A stretch of DNA of 64,000 nt from an uncultured Planctomycetota bacterium (GCA_963784995.1 CAWATZ010000006.1:72853-136852), one strand, 5' to 3'; shown: positions 1,626-42,644, counted from the stretch's first letter. The notes: generated from the sequence alone by a model not told the origin. Translations and numbers: made by a program.

Positions 1626-1651
1626 GTCACGAACACCAAGGCGCGACGGTT

Positions 1652-1782
1652 CCCGTGGGTGCGCTGCGCGACCCACGGCTGGGATACGTAACCCCTTCGG
1701 GGTAGAAGACAGGGCCGGGCCTTGGTTTTTACCCCGAAGGGGTTGCATATCCCAGCCGTGGGTCGCGCAGCGCACCCACGGG
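1652..1782. repeat. 131-bp composite palindrome (outer 37-bp inverted arms CCCGTGGGTGCGCTGCGCGACCCACGG... and an inner 14-bp hairpin)
   Basis: Arms 1652-1688 and 1746-1782 are reverse complements. The inner pair is AACCCCTTCGGGGT/ACCCCGAAGGGGTT. The same core CCGTGGGTCGCGCAGCGCACCCACGG recurs at 33594-33621. Confidence 0.85.
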
Positions 1783-1814
1783 AATTTGACCACGGATTCC
1801 TCCAGGAGCGACTG

Positions 1815-22447: not shown

Positions 22448-22879
22448 TCAGGCGGGCTTCGCGCCCTCACCGAGTAACCGGGCCCGGATGCCCGCCGGGA
22501 TCTCCACCGACTCGATCCGGTGCTTCCCCGCGTCAATCCGGCAGCAGACGCAGCTGATCTTGCCCCGGGCCACTTCCTCATCGCTCAGCCGGAACGTGAA
22601 GCCGTAGGTCAGCGACTTGGTGCCCACTCGCTCCAGCCGCACCTCGATGTCCACCACGTCCTCGAAGCGGATCGGCTTGATGAAGTCGCAGGACGCCGAC
22701 ACCCGGGGGAAGCCGAGCGCCATCCCCTCCCAGTTCAGCACCACCGACAGATCCAGCGAACGCAGGAACTCGTGTTCGGCCCCCTCCATGAAGCGGAAGA
22801 AACTACTGAAGTGAACGATGCCGGCCATGTCGGTGTCGCTGAACTCCACCCGCCGGGTCGTGTGAAAGGAGCGCGTCAT
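22448..22879 (-). CDS. acyl-CoA thioesterase, hotdog fold (YbgC/4HBT family)
   Basis: RVEFSDTDMAGIVHFSSFFRFMEGAEHEFLRSL matches the 4HBT N-terminal core (D.D..GHV.N..Y). Confidence 0.8.
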   Translation of the reverse strand: MTRSFHTTRRVEFSDTDMAGIVHFSSFFRFMEGAEHEFLRSLDLSVVLNWEGMALGFPRVSASCDFIKPIRFEDVVDIEVRLERVGTKSLTYGFTFRLSDEEVARGKISCVCCRIDAGKHRIESVEIPAGIRARLLGEGAKPA

Positions 22880-22951
22880 CGGCTCGTCTCCTGCGGTAGG
22901 ACGGCCTTCCCAGGCCGTCCTCTTCCTTCTGGACGGCCTGGGAAGGCCGTC

Positions 22952-24243
22952 CTACCTTGGCAAATAGCGAGCATACACCTCCAGCGTCTCCCGGGCCATC
23001 TGATCGGCCGTGAAGCGCTCGTGGACCGTCTCCTTGCCCTTGCGGCCCAGCTCCTCCGCCAGCGTCCGGTCTTCCATCAAGCGGCGCAATCCCCGGGCGA
23101 GGTCGGCCGGGTCGCCCGGGTTGACCAGCAGACCGCCGCCCGTCGCCTGGATCAGCTCGGGAAACGACCCGTGTCTCGGCTGCACCACAGGCACCCCGTT
23201 GGCCAGCGCCTCCAGAACGTACAGGCCCTTTGGCTCGCGGTAGGTCGTCGGCACCGACAGCACGTCAATCCCATGCAGGAAGGCGACCTTGGAGTCGTGG
23301 TCGGGGCACTCGACGTGCTCGAAGGAGTCGCTCAGGCCGTCCGACTCCAGACGCTTGCGCAGGTCGGCGAAGTATTCCTTGTTGTTCTCGCCGAGCCAGC
23401 CGGACACGCGCAGCCGGCACGGCGGCAGGTCCGGGTTCTGCCGCAGCAGGCGAAACGCCTCGATCAGGACGTGCAGTCCCTTCTCGGGGCACATGCGGGC
23501 AAAGTAACCGATCGTGAAGGGATGCCCGGTGCGGTCGGGCGCGGTCCGCCGTGGCCCTTGAGGTTCAGACCGGGATAGACAACGTGGATGCGCTCGCGCG
23601 GCAGGCCCAGGTAGCCGGCCATGAAGTCGGCGTAGTAGCTGCACGTCGCGATGAAGCCATCGATGTATTGGCCCTGCTCACGGATCAGGTCGAGGGCCTT
23701 GCGGCGATACCTGTCCGGCAGGCTTTCGAGGAAGATGTCGTCGCCCTGGAGCGAGCAGAGGATCGGCACGCCCAGCTTCTCCTTGAGGGCGGGCACCATG
23801 CCGGAGAGCAGGGCGTTGGTGAGCTGGATCAGTCCCGGCTTGATCTCGTGAGCGAGCCACTGCACCAGCTTGGCCACTTCCTTGCGCTGGTAACCGTGCG
23901 TCCCTTGCAGCATCGAGATGGTCAGCTCGCCCAGCTCCTCGGCCTGCGTCTTGACCGCGAAGCGCGACACCCAGCGCAGCAGACCCGGGATGTCGAGCAG
24001 CCGGTCGAAGACCCAGGGCGTCCAGCGAAAGAAGCCCATCTTCTGCTGCAAGTAGACGTTGATGCCGCCGAAGAAGACGCGATGCTGGCTGACGTCCTCC
24101 TCATCGGTGCGGATGGGGGTGTAGGTGGGCACCAGCAGCGCGTCCCGGCCCTGGCGGGCCAGGGCGGCGACCAGGGTGTTGTCGTGCATGCAGGAGCCGC
24201 AGAACATGCCCGCGGCCCCGGCGGTGACGTAGACGATCCGCAT
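22952..24243 (-). CDS. glycosyltransferase family 4 (frameshift near 23555)
   Basis: N-terminal GT-B half (MRIVYVTAGAAGMFCGS..., 23464-24243) and C-terminal half with EPKGLYVLEALANGVPVV (22952-23644) lie in different frames. Confidence 0.75.
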
Positions 24244-25717: not shown

Positions 25718-25940
25718 GACCAGCCAGGCGGTCAGCGTCAGTGGGCTGGGTGGTTGGGTGGGACTGGCCCCGGCACTGGGGCTGGCGGTAACGGCACCGG
25801 GGGGGATGGCAGTGAAGGACTCGGACACGATCAGCTCCGCAAGGTGCGAATGAGGATCAGCAGGGGACGGAAGGAGAAACGCTTCTCCGGCAGGATTCAG
25901 TCTATGGAGGTTGGGCTGCGGTGTCCGGTCAGACCCAGGC

Positions 25941-26008
25941 GAGCCCGCACGCCTGCGTGCGCTCCGGCCGGCAGGCCGGCCGGAGCGCACGCAGGCGTGC
26001 GGGCTCGC
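25941..26008. repeat. 68-bp near-perfect palindrome; head-to-head variant of the 40-bp GC-rich element family (copy A)
   Basis: GCGAGCCCGCACGCCTGCGTGCGCTCCGGCCGGC|AG|GCCGGCCGGAGCGCACGCAGGCGTGCGGGCTCGC. Intergenic, immediately 3' of the chorismate-lyase-like gene. Confidence 0.9.
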
Positions 26009-26010
26009 CT

Positions 26011-30708: not shown

Positions 30709-31324
30709 GTGACAACAGAGCAGCCAACGCTGACTTCTCTCCTGAAGCAGGTCCAGGCAGGTTCCCAGGAGGCGGCGCAAACGCTGTACGACCTCTACGC
30801 CTCCCACGTGCGCCAGGTGATCCGCTTGCGTCTCTCGGATCGGCTGCGCCGGCGGTTTGATTCCCTGGATTTCTGCCAGGACGTCTGGGCATCGATCTTC
30901 ACCTCTCCCCCGGAGCCGGACGCCTTTGAGTCGCCGGAGAAATTCGTTGCGTTCCTGACCCGCATGGCCCAGAACAAGGTGACCGACGCTACCCGGCAGC
31001 AACTGGGGACGGAGAAATACGATCTCGGTCGCGAGGAACCGTTCAGCCGGAGCAACGAAGGCAAGGTCCCGGTGCGACTCTTTGCCCGCGAGGACACTCC
31101 CAGCGTCCTCGCCGCCAGCAAGGAGGCGTGGGACAAGCTCCTCGTCAGCTTGCCTCCGGTACACCGGCGCGTCCTGGTGCTGCTTCACCAGGGAAAGACT
31201 CAGGAGGAGACGGCCGCGAAGCGCAGGCCGGCCTGCCGGCCGGAGCGCACGCAGGCGTGCGGGGGTCACCCGGAGGACCGTCGAACGGATCTATGCCCGT
31301 GCCGTGCAGCAGCTCCGTTCCTGA
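30709..31324 (+). CDS. ECF-type sigma factor, 3' end disrupted by 40-bp palindromic element copy B
   Basis: Region 2 (ASHVRQVIRLRLSDRLRRRFDSLDFCQDVWASIF) and the start of region 4 (VLVLLHQGKTQEETAAK) are followed by the element ([15 protein letters not shown]). The expected helix-turn-helix continuation GVTRRTVERIYARAVQQLRS* lies in a different frame. Confidence 0.7.
31222..31261. repeat. 40-bp GC-rich palindromic element, copy B (CGCAGGCCGGCCTGCCGGCCGGAGCGCACGCAGGCGTGCG)
   Basis: Exact consensus copy. Contains the CGCACGC-AGG-CGTGCG hairpin and a GGCCGGCC..CCGGCCGG palindrome. Confidence 0.9.
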
Positions 31325-31354
31325 AACCGGTTCTCCCGCCGCATTGACTGGACC

Positions 31355-33527
31355 GTGAAGTATTGGGATATCGCAGCGAACCTGGATTACAGACGAGTCA
31401 TGGCGGAAATGAGCCCAGAAGCACGAGCAGACGGTTGCATCCGAGAGGAGAGCTGGTCGGTCCTCCTGGAGGCAGCTTACTTTGAATACTGCTGCCTCGA
31501 GCAAGAGGGCCAGGCCGTCGATCTCCAGGCCTTCTGTGCGCGCTATCCAGGGATGCACGGCGCTCTGTGGATTCTCTTGCAGAGTCACCAGTTTCTGGAG
31601 AACAACCCGCACCTGCTGATTCGCGAGCCCAACTGGCCGCAGCCCGGCGCGACCTTTCGGGGTTTCCGCCTGGAACGGCTGCTCGGGCAAGGGTCGTTTG
31701 CCCGGGTCTTCCTGGCCCGCCAGCTGGCCCTCGGCGGCCGGCTGGTGGCTTTGAAGCTCTCGACTCGAACGGGCGCCGAAGCGCACGTGCTCGGGCGGCT
31801 GGTGCATCCCAACGTCATCCCCGTCTTTTCGGTGGAGCGCGACGAGGCCACCGAACTCACGGCCCTGTGCATGCCGTATTTCGGAGACGCGACCCTGCTG
31901 GACGTGCTGGTTCAGCTCCAGGCCGCTACCGCGCTGCCACGGAACGCGGCCGTCCTGCTGGACGTGCCCAGGCGGTTGGCCGCCGCGCTGCCGCTGGAAA
32001 ACGTGTTGCCACCGCCGCGCGTCCTGGTCCAGGGCAGCTACGAGGAAGGGGTGCGTCATCTCGGCAGCCAGCTCGTGGACGCGCTGGCCTACCTCCACGA
32101 GCAGGGCATTGTCCACCGCGACCTGAAACCGTCCAACATCCTGCTCACGCCTGCCGGGACGCCCCTGCTGCTGGACTTCAACCTCTGCGCCGCGGTCGAG
32201 CAAAACGATGCCGAACATGGGGGATCGGTCAGGTACATGGCTCCCGAGATCCTGGGGGCCATGATCCAGCAGGATGCCCCGGCGCCGCTCGATGGGCGTG
32301 CCGACCTCTTCTCCCTGGGAGTCATCCTTTACGAGCTGCTGACCGGTTGCCACCCGTTTGACCCACTGCCGAGGGAGCTGGACACGAAGGAATCCTGGCA
32401 GCAGTTGCTGAAGTGCCAGCAGGCGGGCAGCCGGCCTGTCCGGGCTTTGAACCCCCGCGTCGATCCCCAGCTGGGCGCCCTGGTGGATCAGTGTTTGTCC
32501 TGGGATGCCGCTCGGCGTCCGCCCCTCGCACGCCTGCGTGCGCTCCGGCCGGCAGGCCGGCCTGCGCTTCGCCGCCGTCGCGGCCTTGCGTCCACGCATC
32601 AGTTTCGTAACCCGCGTGCGGGCCCTGGCAACCCACCGTCCACGGACCGTTGCTGCTCTCCTGGTGTCGGGGCTCCTTGCTGTCCCGGCACTGGCGCTGG
32701 CGTTGTCCGGCGGGTTGCTCGGGACGGAGTTGGAACGCGGCCGGGAAGCGTACCGTCAGGGGCGGTACGAGCAGGCCGTGGTCCATTTCGATCGAGCGCT
32801 GGCAACCGACCCCAACGACGCCCAGGGATGGTTTGCGCGCGGACTGGCCTACCAGAAACTGGGGCAGTCGGATCGCAGGAACTACGCCCACGCCGCGGCG
32901 GACTTCGAGGGGGCCTGGCGCCTCGACCCGCAAGGAAAAAGCAAAGCCTGTCTGGGTTACTGTTTGCAGGCGCGAGGACAATCTCTGGAGGCCGCTCTGG
33001 TGTATGAGGAGGCCATCCAGAGCGGTTACGCTCCGGCCGAGTTGCTCAACAACCTCGGTGCCGCGGAATGGGCCCTGGCCCGTCTGGCTCTGGCCGAACA
33101 GCACCTCAGCGCTGCCATCAAGCTCGAACCACGCCTTCAGGCAGCCTACCATCACCGCGCTCTTGTCTATCTGCAACTCGCACGCCAGCAGACGGCGCCC
33201 GATGCCGCGTTACGCCGGGACAAGTTCCTCCGCGCGGGCATCGCAGACGCGAACAAGGCCCTTGCACTTGGGCCGCCCTCAGGGGAATTGTTTTACGACG
33301 CCGCTCAACTGTGTGGAGTGGCCGCACGTACTCACCCGGTGTGGGCGAACCCAGCACTGGACTACCTCGACCAGGCCTTGCGTTACGGCGTCAAGCCGAA
33401 GCAACTTGCCGACAAGGCCTGGGTCGCCCTGCACAAGGAACCCCGTTTCCAGGCACTCGAAAAACGCTCTCCCGTTCCTCACCCGGCATTCAAGGCCGTG
33501 CGCATCCTGCCTCCCGTGAAAGAGTAA
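31355..33527 (+). CDS. Ser/Thr protein kinase-TM-TPR protein, interrupted by 40-bp element copy C
   Basis: Kinase domain ([18 protein letters not shown]...RYMAPE) up to ...SWDAARRPP. Then the element. Then, in another frame, a TM segment ([20 protein letters not shown]) and TPR repeats ([38 protein letters not shown]...). Confidence 0.75.
32527..32566. repeat. 40-bp GC-rich palindromic element, copy C (reverse orientation)
   Basis: CGCACGCCTGCGTGCGCTCCGGCCGGCAGGCCGGCCTGCG is the exact reverse complement of copy B. Preceded on the element strand by CGAAG, as are copies B and D. Confidence 0.9.
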
Positions 33528-33593
33528 GGGCTGCTCTCCAGGCATGGTTAGGCGCGACGCGGAGCACGCCGGCCACAACCTTCGCGCTCCTGT

Positions 33594-33621
33594 CCCGTGG
33601 GTCGCGCAGCGCACCCACGGG
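33594..33621. repeat. 28-bp hairpin CCCGTGGGTCGCGCAGCGCACCCACGGG (single arm of the 1652-1782 palindrome family)
   Basis: Sequence identity to 1746-1782. Followed by an unusually AT-rich stretch. Confidence 0.8.
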
Positions 33622-33821
33622 GACCATTTTTTGCAAAAAAACTTTTTCGCAATGTCTCAATGCTGGGTCAAATCTCGATTATTAATAGGAGAAGCTTCTC
33701 ACCTTTTTACCAACACCGTCCCGGAACCCTGAGTGCGGTTTGACTGCCGCCGTGCTCCTGCGTGATCGGTGCGCGCCGGCAGGGGGACTGACTTGCGCCT
33801 GTGAGAAAGGTGGAATGAAGC

Positions 33822-34570
33822 ATGTGGAAGACTCTGCTTACGTGGTGGCAAAGGCCAGCAAGACGTGCCAGCGCCCAGCCGGTCCGGCTCTTTCTGGAGC
33901 ATCTGGAATCGCGCTGGTGTCCCTCGTCTGGAGGGGGAGGGGGAGGGGCGCCGACGTTGACTTACAACGTCACCCAGACCGGCGGCCAGACCGTCCTGAT
34001 CTCCGGCACGGTCACGGACCAGAACCCCAGCTCGGTGGACATTTCCTTCACGGGCGTGGTCAACACCAGCATCACCGCATCCGCCAACGGGACCTTTTCC
34101 GTCTCGACGACGGCCTCCGCCCTGGGAGAAATTGACGGCGTGGACAAAGGTGGCCCAGCAGTTGAGTTCGCCGCCACCCCGGGTTGCGCTGCGCTCCACC
34201 CGGGGCTCTATTCCCCAGGACAGGAGTAAAGCCCCGGGTGGAGCGCAGCGCAACCCGGGGGAGTTCGCCGGTCGTCCCCTTCAACCTGACGAACAACCCG
34301 CCGCAGATCGTGAATTTCCAGGCCGTCCAGGTGACGGGCAACATCTGGACGCTGAGCGGACAGGTCCAGGATGCCTGCGCCAGCGGGTTGGTGGTGACCT
34401 TCGGCGGGTTTCCCGAGCTGGACGGGCAGACGGTCCTGACGGATGACAACGGCAACTTTTCTTTTGCGGTCACGCTGGCCGATGGCGAGTACGGAACCGC
34501 GACCGCCCAGACCTGCGATGGCTGGGACATGGAGTCCAACGTCGCCGAGTGGTACATCAACCCGGCCTAG
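33822..34570 (+). CDS. secreted protein with two tandem Ig-like/beta-sandwich repeats, interrupted between the repeats by a hairpin MITE
   Basis: N-terminus RRASAQPVRLFLEHLESRWCPS (planctomycete secretion-type leader). Repeat 1 is ...ISGTVTDQNPSSVDISFTGVV...NGTFSV. Repeat 2 is ...LSGQVQDACASGLVVTFGG...NGNFSFAV. The two repeats lie in different frames on either side of 34176-34261. Confidence 0.6.
34176..34261. mobile_element. 86-bp hairpin MITE-like element (arms CCGGGTTGCGCTGCGCTCCACCCGGGG / CCCCGGGTGGAGCGCAGCGCAACCCGG) flanked by a 10-bp direct repeat GAGTTCGCCG
   Basis: Perfect ~27-bp inverted arms around a 28-nt loop. GAGTTCGCCG is present at 34164-34173 and 34261-34270. A second copy without an obvious duplication lies at 35716-35806. 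Confidence 0.75.
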
Positions 34571-34626
34571 CGTCCGATACGCAGACGGCAACAGGACCAC
34601 ACCAGGCCGCCCGATCGGAACCAACG

Positions 34627-34968
34627 ATGCACAAAAGCAAAGACGTGGACCGCCTCGTCGAGCGAACCCAGAGCGGGGATGCCGATGCGGCGGCGATCAT
34701 CCGCCGCCAGGTGAAGCCTCTCCTTGCCTGCAGGCTCCGCTGGAACCTGCAGGGAGAGGGAGGCACGACAGGGGTGGACCAGGTGCTGAGCGAATTCCTC
34801 CACGAGCAGTCGGCGACGGTCGATCGCGCGACCCTGGCGGAACCGAAGGAAATCGAGCGCCTCGCTGAGATCCTCACCGACCGATTCATGAACCGTCTGG
34901 CCGCACAGGGCGCAGTCGAGACAACCGTGCCGTACCAGCGAACCGTGCGCATGCCAGCGGTTCGCTGA
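34627..34968 (+). CDS. hypothetical protein
   Basis: 113 aa from MHKSKDVDRLVERTQSGDADAAAIIRRQ.... Helical, no recognisable family. Confidence 0.4.
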   Translation: MHKSKDVDRLVERTQSGDADAAAIIRRQVKPLLACRLRWNLQGEGGTTGVDQVLSEFLHEQSATVDRATLAEPKEIERLAEILTDRFMNRLAAQGAVETTVPYQRTVRMPAVR

Positions 34969-35117
34969 GCCGCGCTGCCGGCACAAGCACCCGCCCTCGC
35001 AGAGAGCCTTTGCATGGCGACCATCTTGATCGTCGATGACCAGCTGAGCATCCGCTACTATCTGGTGCGGCTGCTGGAGCACGCCGGCCATCGGTTGCTC
35101 CAGGCCGCCGACCGAAG

Positions 35118-35157
35118 CGCAGGCCGGCCTGCCGGCCGGAGCGCACGCAGGCGTGCG
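35118..35157. repeat. 40-bp GC-rich palindromic element, copy D
   Basis: Exact consensus. Sits between receiver-domain codons ...AADRS and EALATVK.... Removing 38 nt restores the receiver reading frame. Confidence 0.9.
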
Positions 35158-35715
35158 AGGCCCTGGCAACCGTCAAGGCGGAACGGCCCGACCTGGTGAT
35201 CACCGACATTCAGATGCCGAACGTGGACGGCTGCGAGTTTGTCCGCCAGCTCCGTGCGGATCCTGCCCTGGCAGCGACACCGGTCATCTTCTGCACGGCC
35301 CGCTCCAGGGAGGAGGCCCAGGTCCTGGCCGATGCCTGGGACGTCGCCGACGTCCTGACCAAACCCTGGGAGCCGGAAGCGGTTCAGCGCGCGGTGGCGT
35401 CCGCCCTGAGCATCGCCCCGCTTCCGGCACCTCCCACCCCGGAGCCTGAGATGCCGGACCAACCCAGAACGGCCAGGCAGACCGAGGCGGCGCTGCGCCA
35501 GTGAAGAACTCTTCCGCAGTGCCTTTGAGTACACCAACGTTGCCATGGTCCTCATGGACGTCAACAATCGCTTTGTTCGTGTCAACGCTGCATTTACCCA
35601 GCTGCTGGGCTATTCGGAAGCGGAGCTGCAACTGGCGATGAGCGACGTCACCCACCCGGACGATCTGGCAGAAAGCGACTCCCGTCGTGCGGCCCTGCCG
35701 GCCGGCACCAGGCGT

Positions 35716-35806
35716 CCCCGGGTTGCGCTGCGCTCCACCCGGGGCTTTACTCCTCAAACCAGGAGTAAAGCCCCGGGTGGAGCGAGGTACGAGCGCAACC
35801 CGGGGG
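35716..35806. mobile_element. 91-bp hairpin MITE-like element (same family as 34176-34261)
   Basis: CCCCGGGTTGCGCTGCGCTCCACCCGGGGCTTTACTCCT...AGGAGTAAAGCCCCGGGTGGAGCG.GGTACGAGCGCAACCCGGGGG. It is translated in frame as ...PRVALRSTRGFTPQTRSKAPGGARYERNPG... inside the first PAS region. Confidence 0.75.
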
Positions 35807-36169
35807 TCTTCCAGATGGAGACACGCTATCGGCACAAGGACGGACACGTCCTGTGGGGCTTGACGAACGTCTCCCTGGTGCGCGACACCAGCGGTCAGCC
35901 GATGCTGTACGTCGGCCAGGTGCAGGACGTCACCGAACGCAAACGCTCGGAAGAGGCACTGGCCAGGTCCGTCGAGCGCCTGCGCATCCTGCATCAGATT
36001 GACCTGGCTTTGATCAAGGGGGAAAGGCCGGAAGAAATTGCCGGAGCAGCCGTGGCACCCCTGCGCGAACTGCTCGGGGTGTCCCGTGCCGTCGTGAACC
36101 TGTTTGACCTGGCCAGCGGCGAGGTCGAGTGGCTGGCCAAAGCGGAGGCCAGCCCTCTGCCCGACCTGT

Positions 36170-36207
36170 CGGGCAGGCCCGACGGAGCGCACGCAGGCGT
36201 GCGGGGG
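36170..36207. repeat. partial or variant copy of the 40-bp element (copy E)
   Basis: GGGCAGGCCCGACGGAGCGCACGCAGGCGTGCGGGGG keeps the 3' hairpin half exactly. Read in frame within the GAF region ([15 protein letters not shown]). Confidence 0.7.
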
Positions 36208-36776
36208 CAGCACCGGGTCCACGTCGGTCCAGGCATCCGCTATTCGATCCGGTTCATGGGGGACGTGGAGGCCTTGCGGCGGGGTGAACTGCAAGTGATC
36301 GACGTCCACGCACTGCCTCCCGGGCCGGAAGTCGATGCCTTGCTGGCCTCCGGGGTCCACTCCTGCGTGGTCGTGCCCATGATCGCCGAAGGCGAACTGA
36401 TCGGCGCGCTCAGCTTCGGAGGCACCGAGGTCGCGTTGTCCCCGGAGCAGGTCACGGTCGCGCAGGAGGCCGCTTCGCAGTTCGCGATCTCCATCTCCCA
36501 GGCGCGACTCCATGAACGGGTCAAACGCCAGGCGCAGGAACTCGAAGCGCAGGTCACCGAGCGCAAACTCGCCGAGGAGGCATTGTGCCTGGCTCAGCAG
36601 CGCCTGCAACACGTGGTGAGTTCCAGCCCGGCCGTGCTCTGCACCCTGGCGGTCGAGGACAGCGACCTCCGGCTCACCTGGATCAGCGACAACGTGCGCG
36701 AGCTTCTTGGCTACTTGCCGGCGGAGGTGTTCTCGCCCCGCTGGTGGCAGGAGCGCGTCCACCCGGAGGACCGGCA

Positions 36777-36836
36777 GCACGCCTGCGTGCGCTCCGTCGG
36801 GCCTGCCCGACAGGTCGGGCAGAGGGCCGGCCTGCG
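36777..36836. repeat. 60-bp variant of the 40-bp element with an extra internal hairpin (copy F, reverse orientation)
   Basis: GCACGCCTGCGTGCGCTCCGTCGGGCCTGCCCGACAGGTCGGGCAGAGGGCCGGCCTGCGC. The histidine-kinase frame is lost exactly here. Confidence 0.8.
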
Positions 36837-37615
36837 CTTGGGGCCGAGATCCAGCAGGGGCTGTTGTCCCACGGTCGCCTGGCCAGTGAGTACCGCTTCC
36901 AGCACAAGGACGGGACCTATCGCTGGGTCCGGGGCGAGTTGCGGTTGCAGAGCGACCCGGCAGGCGGGGCCACGGAAATTGTGGGCTCCTGGTCGGACGT
37001 GACCCAGCGCAAACAGCTGGAGGAGCAGTTCCGCCAGGCGCAGAAAATGGAGGCGATCGGCCGGCTGGCGGGCGGGGTGGCGCATGATTTCAACAATCTG
37101 CTGACCATCATCAACGGCTACGGCACCCTGGTGCTGACCCGGTTGCCGGCCGACGACCCCACGCGCGAAATGATCCGGGAGGTCGTCGCCGCCGGGGACC
37201 GGGCTGCCGGTCTGACGCGCCAGCTGCTGGCCTTTAGCCGCAAGGCCTTCATCGAACCCAGGGTGCTGGACCTCAAAGTCCTGGTCGGCGACCTCCAGAA
37301 AATGCTTCGCCGCATCATCGGCGAGGACATCCAGCTGACCGTGGCGTCCGATCCCGACCTGGGCGCGGTGAATGCCGACCTCGGCCAGATCGAGCAGGTG
37401 ATCATGAACCTGGTGGTCAACGCCCGGGACGCCATGCAAGGGGGCGTTTGGGGAGACCCTCCACAACACCACCCGCCGGGGGGCCAGCTGACCATCGAAC
37501 TGCGCAACCGCGACCTGGACGAGACATCCGCTCGGGAGCAGCCGGAAGCCCGGGCCGGACCGTACGTGGTGCTGACGGTCCGCGACACGGGCTGCGGCAT
37601 GGACGCGGCCCCGAG

Positions 37616-37656
37616 CGCAGGCCGGCCTGCCGGCCGGAGCGCACGCAGGCGTGCTG
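37616..37656. repeat. 40-bp GC-rich palindromic element, copy G (3' end GTGCT variant)
   Basis: Inside the HATPase_c G1/G2 region, between GCGMDAAP and [11 protein letters not shown]. Confidence 0.85.
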
Positions 37657-37869
37657 GGCCCGGATCTTCGAGCCCTTTTTCACCACCAAGGGGGAAAAGG
37701 GCACCGGACTGGGGCTGGCCACGGTCTATGGCATCGTCAAGCAGAGCGGCGGCCACGTCACCGTCTCCAGCGCGGTGGGGGCCGGGACGACCTTCCAGGT
37801 GTACCTGCCGCGCGTGCAGCAACGGCCCTCGGAAAGGATGAAGGATGAAGGATGAATCAGAACCCCAAG

Positions 37870-37909
37870 CGCAGGCCGGCCTGCCGGCCGGAGCGCACGC
37901 AGGCGTGCG
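37870..37909. repeat. 40-bp GC-rich palindromic element, copy H
   Basis: Exact consensus, 17 bp downstream of the histidine-kinase stop. Possible terminator-like position. Confidence 0.9.
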
Positions 37910-37960
37910 TGGCACCCGGCAACTGACGCAGAGGGGCACCCGCTTGCGGGTCTGCCGGAA

Positions 37961-40976: not shown

Positions 40977-41597
40977 CATGAAGCCCGACACGTCCGCCTA
41001 CGGTTCGGTCACGGCCCTCCTCGAGCGCCTGAAGAGCGGCGACCACGAGGCCGCACGCCTGCTGTGGCAGCGCTACTACCCGCGTCTGGTGGCGCTGGCC
41101 CGGCAGAAGCCGCAATCGGGGTAGTCCAGCGTGGCGTCGCCGACGAGGAGGACGCGGTCCTCAGCGCCTTCAACAGCTTCTGCCGCCGGGCCGAAGAGGG
41201 GCACTTCCCCGACCTGAAGGACCGCGACGGCTTGTGGGCCTTGCTGGTGGTCCTCACGGTCCGCAAGGCCGCCGACCTGCTCCGGCACCACCAGCGCGAG
41301 AAGCGCGGCGGCGGTCTGGTCCAGGACGAGTCGGTCCTGCAGCCAGCCCAGGGTGACAGCGGCCCGGGCGGCCTTGACGTCCTGCCGGGCGACGAGCCGA
41401 CACCGCTGGAAGCGGCCCTCCTGGCGGAAGTAGTCGAGAACCTGCTGGCGCGGCTGCGTGAATCAGCGTTGCGTCAAATCGCGGTCTGGAAACTGGAGGG
41501 CTACACCAATGCCGAGATTGCCTCTCGACTGGGCTGTTCCGAGCCGACCGTGGAGCGCCGGCCGGTCATCATCCGCCGCTTGCTGAAAGGACCGTGA
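40977..41597 (+). CDS. ECF sigma factor (planctomycete kinase-associated type); frameshift near 41115
   Basis: MKPDTSAYGSVTALLERLKSGDHEAARLLWQRYYPRLVALARQK. Then a -1 shift into ...DEEDAVLSAFNSFCRRAEEGHFPDLKDRDGLWALLVVLTVRKAADLLRH.... Region 4 is LRQIAVWKLEGYTNAEIASRLGCSEPTVERR. Confidence 0.75.
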   Translation, partial: HEARHVRLRFGHGPPRAPEERRPRGRTPAVAALLPASGGAGPAEAAIGVVQRGVADEEDAVLSAFNSFCRRAEEGHFPDLKDRDGLWALLVVLTVRKAADLLRHHQREKRGGGLVQDESVLQPAQGDSGPGGLDVLPGDEPTPLEAALLAEVVENLLARLRESALRQIAVWKLEGYTNAEIASRLGCSEPTVERRPVIIRRLLKGP

Positions 41598-41629
41598 TCC
41601 CAACGTCCAGTCGAAGCGAAGGAAAAGCG

Positions 41630-42553
41630 ATGATACACGATAAACGATTCAAGGTGCTGTTGCGGGAGTTTCTGCGGGAGTTCCCGGCGCTGTTCTTTCC
41701 GGAGCTGTTTCCCCACCTGGACCTGGCCAAAGCGGACTGGCTGCACCAGGAGCTTTATCACGCGCTTCAAGAGGGCAGCACGGAGACCATCGACCTTTTG
41801 GTCCGGGTGCCACTCTTGTCCTCGGCAGCCAGCCTCGCTCCTCCCGATTGTCCGACATTCGATGCCATCCTCCTTCACATCGAGGTCGAGTCGGCTGACA
41901 CGGTGGCACCCTTCCGCAAACGGACGTACCACTATTATCACCAGCTGACCGAGGTCCACGGACTGAACGTGTTTCCGATCGCGGTGTATCTGCGAGTGGG
42001 GTTGGAGGGCCGGGGCAAGGATGCCTACGAGGTCCGCGTGCTGAACCGGACCCCTCTGCGCTTCGAGTATGATTACGTCGGGCTACCCGGTTTGGAGGGC
42101 AAGGATTACCTCCACCAGGACAACCCGCTGGGGATCGCCTGGTCCGCCCTGATGCGCTGGTCGCGGAAGCAGCGTGCCCAGGCCGCCGTCGAGGCCCTGG
42201 ACCGCATCGTGGCCAGCGCGGAGAGCCCGGCCCGCAAGATGCTGCTGTGTGAGTGCGTACAGGCGTATGCTCCCCTGGAAGACGACCAGCGTCTTGAGAT
42301 ATACTCGCTATTGAAACAACCTGAACATGAAGGAGTCCGTGCCATGGTCAAAACCTGGTCCGAAGAAGGCGAAGAAAGAGGCATCCTGAAAGGGCAACGC
42401 GAACTGTTGCTCAAACAACTGGTGGTGAAATTCCCCACGTTGAGCAAGGCAGCGCGTGAACGAGTGGCCAGTTGGCCACTGGAGAAAATCAACGAGGTGG
42501 GAGTCGCCATGTTCAACGCCCAATCGCTGCGCGAGCTGGGGCTGGAGGACTGA
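41630..42553 (+). CDS. Rpn/YhgA-like PD-(D/E)XK nuclease family protein ('transposase_31') with DUF4351 C-terminus
   Basis: KRFKVLLREFLREFPALFFPE... N-terminus typical of YhgA/Rpn. C-terminal ERGILKGQRELLLKQLVVKFPTLSKAARERVASWPLEKINEV is DUF4351-like. Confidence 0.75.
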   Translation: MIHDKRFKVLLREFLREFPALFFPELFPHLDLAKADWLHQELYHALQEGSTETIDLLVRVPLLSSAASLAPPDCPTFDAILLHIEVESADTVAPFRKRTYHYYHQLTEVHGLNVFPIAVYLRVGLEGRGKDAYEVRVLNRTPLRFEYDYVGLPGLEGKDYLHQDNPLGIAWSALMRWSRKQRAQAAVEALDRIVASAESPARKMLLCECVQAYAPLEDDQRLEIYSLLKQPEHEGVRAMVKTWSEEGEERGILKGQRELLLKQLVVKFPTLSKAARERVASWPLEKINEVGVAMFNAQSLRELGLED

Positions 42554-42561
42554 CAGGCTGC

Positions 42562-42644
42562 CGTTGCCACCCGGATGGGCTGTTCCGTGCCGACCGTGGA
42601 GCAGTGGCTGGCCATCATCCGCCACTTTCTGATGGAACCGTGAT
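42562..42644 (+). pseudogene. diverged duplicate of the ECF sigma factor gene 3' end
   Basis: About 78% identity to 41515-41597. Translates VATRMGCSVPTVEQWLAIIRHFLMEP*, against IASRLGCSEPTVERRPVIIRRLLKGP*. Confidence 0.8.

Follow-up and report, generated by a model that had tools for sequence, protein, structure and literature searches.

The long hairpin inserted in two genes of a 64-kb planctomycete window (the whole stretch of DNA analyzed here) is probably a tail-to-tail (tags-inside, TT) dimer of a REP-type repeat, with its mobility supplied in trans by a Y1 transposase from outside the window. What argues for this reading is that the constituent units occur singly, in dimers, and in arrays, and that inverted copies of them bracket Y1 transposase genes.

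In the model that we favor, each unit joins a 9-nt tag, GGAATAWAG, to a stem-loop of 29 nt, CCCCGGGT-GGAGCGCAGCGCA-ACCCGGGG. By analogy with REP/BIME/REPIN systems, units and dimers would be non-autonomous DNA, which a Y1 transposase from elsewhere in the genome would cut and rejoin as single-stranded hairpins, a chemistry that would normally leave no target duplication. One dimer (copy 1) landed disruptively in the linker of an Ig-repeat protein and the other (copy 2) in frame in a PAS loop; the 10-nt repeat flanking copy 1 would be a rare by-product, not the mark of the mechanism.

Copy 1 is a hairpin made of two tagged stem-loops

Copy 1 lies between two occurrences of a 10-nt direct repeat that is found nowhere else in the 64-kb window, and the 87 nt separating them comprise a CCA trinucleotide followed by an 84-nt palindrome (Table 1). 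The preliminary description of this site had correctly placed the two repeats and recognized the inverted arms, while its values for the element (86 bp) and for the perfect pairing of the arms (~27 bp) need correction. The 38-nt arms are 95% complementary and pair through a perfect stem of 31 bp, followed by one mismatch and a further 6 bp. As single-stranded DNA, the palindrome is predicted to fold with -51.3 kcal/mol (z = -12.8).

Each arm is in turn a self-folding 29-nt stem-loop with a 9-nt tag. Taken alone as DNA, the 29-nt unit forms an 8-bp stem with a 13-nt loop at a predicted -9.7 kcal/mol. The 29-nt arm core has three matches in the window versus 0 expected, the third of which is the start of copy 2.

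Several other identities for the hairpin or its parts were rejected. The CCA beside copy 1 does not represent the conserved 3-nt tail seen in some REP families, because 48 aligned units have no conserved base at the untagged end. A search of Rfam returned only generic long-hairpin miRNA models, far under thresholds, and a known RNA family was therefore dismissed. We similarly discarded intrinsic terminators, as neither dimer is followed by a T-run and a terminator scan calls nothing at either place.

Table 1. Coordinates of the hairpin dimers, their parts, and related repeats in the 64-kb window
Feature	Position	Strand	Remarks
Interrupted gene, protein with two Ig-like repeats	33822..34570	+	GC3 phase switch at element; orthologue P0001; Big_6 in homologues
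Left direct repeat GAGTTCGCCG	34164..34173	+	Upstream frame reads E-F-A
CCA, 3 nt, left repeat to palindrome	34174..34176	+	Outside conserved unit (48-unit profile: no conserved tail at untagged end)
Left REP-type unit body CCCCGGGTTGCGCTGCGCTCCACCCGGGG	34177..34205	-	8-bp stem, 13-nt loop; 23-nt core identical in at least 85 loci, other phyla
Left unit tag CTCTATTCC, complement of GGAATAGAG	34206..34214	-	Fits family tag GGAATAWAG
8-nt spacer CCAGGACA, loop of long hairpin	34215..34222	.	
Right unit tag GGAGTAAAG	34223..34231	+	Contains TAA (34227-34229) terminating upstream ORF
Right REP-type unit body CCCCGGGTGGAGCGCAGCGCAACCCGGGG	34232..34260	+	Match to 29-nt arm core
Right direct repeat GAGTTCGCCG	34261..34270	+	Downstream frame reads (G)-S-S-P
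Copy 2, 90-nt TT dimer	35716..35805	+	Body 35716-35744, tag CTTTACTCC, spacer TCAAACCA, tag GGAGTAAAG, body 35771-35805
Sister REP family, single unit CCCGTGGGTCGCGCAGCGCACCCACGGG	33594..33621	+	Between genes, after kinase-TPR gene; T6 run 5 nt downstream
Sister REP family, dimer	1650..1784	.	~70-nt structured spacer; 67-nt arms, 91% complementary
~42-nt family sites	25937-26010, 31207-31267, 32527-32567, 35103-35163, 36172-36206, 36776-36816, 37601-37661, 37855-37915		

Copy 1 truncates a gene for a small exported-looking protein

The gene for the Ig-repeat protein is split at copy 1, and the GC3 phase of the coding signal changes exactly there. Ig-like repeat 1 is encoded by an upstream ORF (33822-34229) that terminates at a TAA within the element, and repeat 2 lies in the native downstream frame (34262-34570), which differs from the upstream one. 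A protein rebuilt from both halves matches an orthologue (P0001; 220 aa, 64% identity) whose contig has the same gene order: a kinase-TPR gene, the gene for the Ig-repeat protein, an ORF of ~110 aa, and an intact 852-aa response-regulator/PAS/GAF/histidine-kinase gene.

Homologues of the Ig-repeat protein carry the Big_6 domain (44.6 and 36.8 bits versus a cut-off of 27.6), and their alignment puts the insertion point in the linker between the two Ig-like repeats, as had been proposed. The extra residues are absent from five of five homologues. Copy 1 is thus an insertion relative to the orthologues, one that truncates a small exported-looking protein through the TAA of its tag plus a frameshift.

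Deleting copy 1 together with one direct repeat (97 nt) leaves the Ig-repeat gene out of frame; 98 nt have to be removed, as is also required by the gapless alignment of GGPAV/SSPVVPF with DDQAM/NSGVVEV in the homologues. The reading frame thus gives no support to the clean target duplication proposed earlier. The surplus base possibly is the second T of GTTGAG. This TT (34162-34163), beside the left direct repeat, presents a single-base frame problem not attributable to an element.

Copy 2 adds 30 residues to a PAS domain

For the second dimer, the original claim of an in-frame copy in a histidine-kinase gene with no duplication agrees with what we see. Alignment to five orthologues identifies copy 2 as an exact 90-nt insertion without target duplication, its greater length being due to 6 additional nt in the right-arm loop. 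The insert is read in frame as 30 aa with no stop, within a loop of the PAS domain: four residues connect ...LLAG to FQME... in the five orthologous kinases, and their place is taken in the window protein by TRR, the 30 element-encoded residues, and V. Pfam PAS models cover the insert as part of one domain, spanning 130 residues for a profile of ~100 positions, and the insertion site is a surface loop of that domain. With orthologues lacking either copy, the view of the hairpin as a non-autonomous element inserted into genes is upheld.

Besides the copy 2 site, the kinase gene has at least four further frame breaks. A frame problem at ~35495-35510 comes without an element: the frame ends in ...ALRQ* and resumes as SEELFRSAFEY in the next frame, adjoining a CC run. 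This and the single-base problem beside copy 1 could be real mutations in dead genes or assembly homopolymer errors. One homologue of a window kinase comes from a Gemmataceae MAG.

The repeated entity is a tagged stem-loop present in several phyla

For a view of the element beyond the window, we scanned other genomes, one per species, with the 23-nt arm core. The scan yielded at least 85 stretches with an exact copy of the core; they belong to Bradyrhizobium, further Alpha-, Beta-, and Gammaproteobacteria, Acidobacteria (Terracidiphilus), and Phycisphaerae, with at least 11 to 13 loci in each of three Bradyrhizobium genomes. In these genomes, the unit appears as singletons, as inverted pairs 50 to 60 nt apart, and as tandem arrays. 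Since units are seen alone, in dimers, and in arrays, the repeated entity is the ~38-nt tagged stem-loop and not the 84-nt hairpin. This also speaks against the initial classification as a MITE with the arms as its terminal inverted repeats: the arms are self-folding REP-type units with an existence outside the hairpin.

Two forms of the unit can be told apart by stem and tag. The proteobacterial unit, CGTAG-CCCGGGTGGAGCGCAGCGCAACCCGGG, is mostly found in the inverted pairs, with the GTAG tags outside; CGTAG is the tag on 108 proteobacterial units, GTAG itself being present in 100 of the 108. Planctomycete and acidobacterial copies, together with those on 16 metagenome contigs, have a stem that is one pair longer and the tag GGAATAWAG (48 units), which GGAGTAAAG and GGAATAGAG of the window fit. 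Units of the latter type occur as singletons, as tags-inside dimers with ~40-nt spacers (L087, L092, L094, and L099), and as tandem arrays (L098, L100, L037, and L072). By the nomenclature of Di Nocera et al. (PMC3733652), the window holds TT dimers, whereas those of Bradyrhizobium, with their tags outside, are head-to-head (HH) dimers.

The window units carry GTAAAG and ATAGAG in place of a strict GTAG, and this counts against the favored model. GTAG is present on the proteobacterial units and also on the cassette-flanking units of L042 and L005; we therefore regard the window copies as relatives of GTAG REPs, not strict members.

The 16 metagenome contigs were obtained with an ungapped arm-plus-tag pattern; a gapped pattern demanding both inner arms gave no match in the metagenomes, and the viral contigs and plasmids scanned for the element held no copy. 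The window itself has four units of this family and three of a sister family. Among 157 units from other sequences, 146 fall outside long ORFs with codon bias; both window dimers are inside genes.

On five Phycisphaerae-type contigs (L098, L100, L037, L072, and L076), we noted tandem arrays with a period of ~86 nt in which REP units alternate with small GC hairpins of another type, such as CACCCCCTGCGGGGGTT or GCCCGCTGCGCGGGC. This arrangement is BIME-like.

Inverted units bracket Y1 transposase genes

The loci were picked by arm sequence alone and not by transposase content, and across 102 of them the genes bracketed by arms are exclusively Y1 transposases. In L005, L040, L042, L072, and L086, inverted units with their tags outside bracket an ORF of 150 to 175 aa; L097 has a frameshifted copy of this ORF and L034 a fragment. 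Pfam Y1_Tnp matches the ORFs of L042 and L040 with E values of 7e-26 and 3e-26, respectively, and the NCBIfam model for IS200/IS605 transposases gives 66 to 69 bits (versus a cut-off of 55); tblastn ties the remaining Phycisphaerae-type loci to these two proteins. Against the RAYT equivalog, the Phycisphaerae enzymes reach 28 bits with a cut-off of 80 and score as IS200/IS605 transposases instead, another point against the favored model. At the Bradyrhizobium locus L049, the gene flanked by the units encodes a REP-associated tyrosine transposase (NF047646, 193.9 bits versus a cut-off of 80). RAYT candidates were found with an approximate E. coli RAYT seed, each then being checked by Pfam or NCBIfam. 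In genomes other than the source, physical linkage thus exists between the family and Y1 genes, and of the IS partners initially proposed for the arms, it is IS200/IS605 that fits, through the bracketed Phycisphaerae Y1 genes and the Bradyrhizobium RAYT.

Neither tblastn nor domain checks revealed a related Y1 transposase gene in the 64-kb window, in agreement with the preliminary description; this, too, speaks against the favored model. A weak tblastn match to RAYT at 41680-42003 (E = 0.05) was rejected, as it belongs to a DUF4351 protein without a Y1 domain. We infer that the source genome encodes a Y1 enzyme of the kind seen in the cassettes, which would have moved the window copies; it should be kept in mind that REP mobility by Y1 enzymes is still unproven in vivo (PMC8266576).

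The DUF4351-domain ORF (41594-42553, 319 aa) sits between 81-nt direct repeats (41518-41598 and 42564-42644, 81% identical). These resemble the 3′-terminal part of a gene for a sigma-factor-like protein (...LGCSEPTVERR...), and the arrangement looks as though a segment of ~1 kb had inserted and duplicated the gene end.

The orientation of the units also deserves attention. In the cassettes, the tagged ends face outward, whereas in the window dimers they face each other across an 8-nt spacer, and tags inside in the window versus tags outside in cassettes and Bradyrhizobium dimers is a further argument against the model. With its tagged ends face to face, a window dimer appears to resemble the right-end/left-end junction of a cassette. 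Such a likeness would fit the published proposal that dimers arise by processing of circular intermediates (PMC3733652).

Flanking direct repeats are rare in the family

The preliminary description had read the 10-bp duplication around copy 1 as a signature of transposition. Using direct repeats of at least 10 nt within 32 nt of a REP cluster as the criterion, we found them at 3 of the 114 clusters with usable flanks versus 0.2 expected. With an expectation of ~0.002 per cluster, the copy 1 repeat is not due to chance, and the excess of such repeats is real, though resting on three cases. All three clusters are dimers, namely, copy 1 (10 nt) and the Bradyrhizobium HH dimers L070 (positions 468-549; 10 nt) and L082 (137-220; 11 nt).

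At copy 1, we rejected the possibility that the 10-mer is a coincidental protein-level repeat, which had been raised as a caveat: it is read as E-F-A on the left and S-S-P on the right, and the five homologues do not have the residues. The copy 1 repeat has the behavior of a duplication that arose upon insertion or later. Nevertheless, target duplication is not a property of the family. The repeat is absent from copy 2, from 111 of the 114 clusters, and from 53 of 55 Bradyrhizobium-type dimers, and a mismatch-tolerant test for decayed repeats showed no excess (mean best match, 6.48 versus 6.31 in shuffled pairs). In addition, target duplication is not known for the IS200/IS605 family (PMC2817692), nor is the term in use in the REPIN/RAYT-focused papers surveyed. 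A perfect 10-nt repeat thus sits uneasily with Y1/IS200-type transposition and counts against a Y1-mobilized TT dimer at this site. The route of REP spread is itself described as unresolved (PMC8266576).

Were target duplication the true explanation, the empty site of copy 1 would read ...GCAGT(T)GAGTTCGCCGGTCG... with a single 10-mer. Orthologous genes without the element were found; the sequences searched contain no site with a single 10-mer, nor an empty site for either of the other two repeat-flanked dimers.

One alternative, which we consider improbable, keeps the REP dimers but adds a second, rarer integration route that duplicates 10 to 11 bp, for example, at a staggered break or a filled-in replication-fork gap, with the repeat-flanked dimers being the freshest. 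It would account for three independent dimers having repeats of similar length (10, 10, and 11 nt), for the absence of repeats from all of the ~60 singletons, and for a distribution that is all-or-none and not graded. At L070 and L082, moreover, the perfect repeats lie 6 to 8 nt outside the GTAG tags on both sides, and the L082 repeat is a duplicate of the neighboring gene's final codons, stop codon included. These are nonetheless three cases, the window case requires one extra nucleotide, and L038, a locus orthologous to L082, has the dimer without the left repeat. Tandem duplication of REPIN-plus-flank units is also a known alternative source of such repeats (PMC3116915). If this second route were true, copy 1, L070, and L082 would be fresh insertions that keep an integration footprint, one pointing to a staggered or fork-associated route distinct from the classical single-strand insertion of IS200/IS605.

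A conventional MITE, as initially suggested, would have the ~30-nt arms as the terminal inverted repeats of a DDE-type IS whose staggered cuts produce a 10-bp target-site duplication. The perfect repeat at copy 1 and those of the two Bradyrhizobium dimers are what this predicts, yet we judge it very unlikely, with copy 2 being an exact insertion that lacks a duplication and decayed repeats not being in excess. Solitary and arrayed arms are unexpected of MITE inverted repeats, the only genes that the arms bracket in the 102 loci are those of Y1 transposases, removal of the element with one repeat does not restore the frame, and the CCA intervenes between the left repeat and the palindrome. Least credible of all is an artefact or later accident, that is, an assembly or polishing error beside a strong hairpin or a local slippage duplication independent of insertion, which the surplus base at copy 1 and the element-free frameshift beside the CC run at ~35500 might suggest, but errors do not make perfect 10-nt duplicates, and the element has a sound structure and matches copies from other genomes exactly.

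Further repeats and gene damage in the window

The window, which has a GC content of 65%, encodes FHA-Ser/Thr kinases, WD40 arrays, hemE, a squalene-hopene cyclase, and an FtsK-like protein. A stretch of ~7 kb (31200-37900) contains 10 of its ~12 REP-type insertions, namely, both dimers, a single unit of the sister family, and seven copies of a ~42-nt repeat. Changes of coding phase fall at 32527, 35103, 36776, and 37601, and of four genes found intact on the metagenome contig with the orthologues, three (kinase-TPR, Ig-repeat, and RR-PAS-GAF-kinase) are broken here. As the codon signal is still strong in every gene fragment, the damage looks recent.

The sister REP family has a CCCGTGGGT/ACCCACGGG stem and the same GCGCAGCGC loop core as the hairpin dimers, and this common design bears out the kinship that had been noted between the element and the palindromes at 1650-1784 and 33594. 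Hairpins of ACCCCTTCGGGGT occupy the spacer of the sister dimer, which lies just upstream of the FtsK-like ORF. A terminator scan of the single unit at 33594-33621 gave no call.

The ~42-nt repeat, AGCGCAGGCCGGCCTGCCGGCCGGAGCGCACGCAGGCGTGC, forms a second short family, with a variant of ~63 nt that has an extra CTGCCCGACCTGTCGGGCAG palindrome. Its suspected link to the hairpin dimers rests only on the short common string GAGCGCA, and we do not maintain it. At 25937-26010, the family forms a perfect hairpin dimer with 36-nt arms. Its insertion at ~36150-36210 contributes 20 in-frame aa, and those at the other intragenic sites cause frameshifts; no flanking duplication was seen at its copies in the window.

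Other long hairpins were observed outside this region. Those at 58007-58093 (30-nt perfect arms) and 59500-59608 (36-nt arms of GTGACAAGG-like repeats) differ from each other within the same conserved flanks, ...TCCCAGGGAAGGCTGTTTCAGCCCCG / GGTCCGAGAGCCTTCCG.GTCCCAGGTC..., and each lies downstream of a 117-nt repeat (57848-57964 and 59344-59460; 91% identical), a cassette-like pattern. Another perfect hairpin with 26-nt arms (GGTAGGACGGCCTTCCCAGGCCGTCC...) is located at 22895-22956, exactly where two minus-strand codon-biased ORFs (22448-22951 and 22952-23677) meet.

Relation to known repeat systems

Like the GTAG REPs (Di Nocera et al. 2013, PMC3733652), of which 24 families have been published, the window family consists of short GC-rich stem-loops with a tag at one end. 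The two have in common singletons, HH and TT dimers, clusters, loop-length variants, and Y1 transposase genes flanked by inverted units. They differ in that the window tags, GGAGTAAAG and GGAATAGAG, fall within GGAATAWAG and not strict GTAG, and in the 10-nt duplication flanking copy 1, which is not described in that survey. GTAG REPs are predominantly extragenic, whereas both window dimers are intragenic, but exceptions are documented: occasional intragenic dimers encode 20 to 30 aa, and the PVC bacterium Opitutus terrae has the largest number of them (PMC3733652). Since intragenic REP dimers of this size have already been described, the element belongs to a known kind. The precedents for HH/TT dimers, for intragenic dimers of 20 to 30 residues, and for REP-flanked Y1 genes, all from GTAG REPs (PMC3733652), would also favor a Y1-mobilized TT dimer.

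As in REPIN-RAYT systems (Bertels & Rainey 2011, PMC3116915; Ton-Hoang 2012, PMC3333891; Corneloup 2021, PMC8266576), in which a single-copy Y1 enzyme with a REP-flanked gene is believed to act in trans, two inverted REPs and a spacer make one long, non-autonomous hairpin, and the Bradyrhizobium member of the family comes with a bona fide RAYT. Unlike in these systems, the Phycisphaerae-linked enzyme scores as an IS200/IS605 transposase and not as a RAYT, and the units of the window dimers are oriented opposite to those of the cassette.

Copy 2 is reminiscent of the Rickettsia palindromic elements (RPEs) in that it is in frame, free of stops, located in a surface loop, and adds 30 residues. 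Unlike with RPEs, the kinase gene hosting it is otherwise frameshifted, copy 1 is disruptive through a stop and a frameshift, and the sequence is unrelated. With bacterial MITEs (Correia/NEMIS, RUP), the dimers share small size, inverted arms, and the absence of coding potential, and copy 1 alone also has a flanking repeat; they differ in that the duplication is not constant, the arms are independent self-folding units, and the linked enzyme is Y1, not DDE.

Implications

For annotation, hairpins of this type are REP-type repeats, not MITEs, and they account for several neighboring genes being called as fragments in this genome. The window also illustrates that REP-type units can accumulate within coding sequence, with about ten insertions in 7 kb. 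The rare repeats of 10 to 11 nt, if confirmed as target duplications, would be a clue to the integration step of REP dimers. A single REP core of 23 to 29 nt is common to Proteobacteria, Acidobacteria, and Planctomycetota, with a RAYT as the linked gene in one phylum and an IS200-like Y1 gene in a second.
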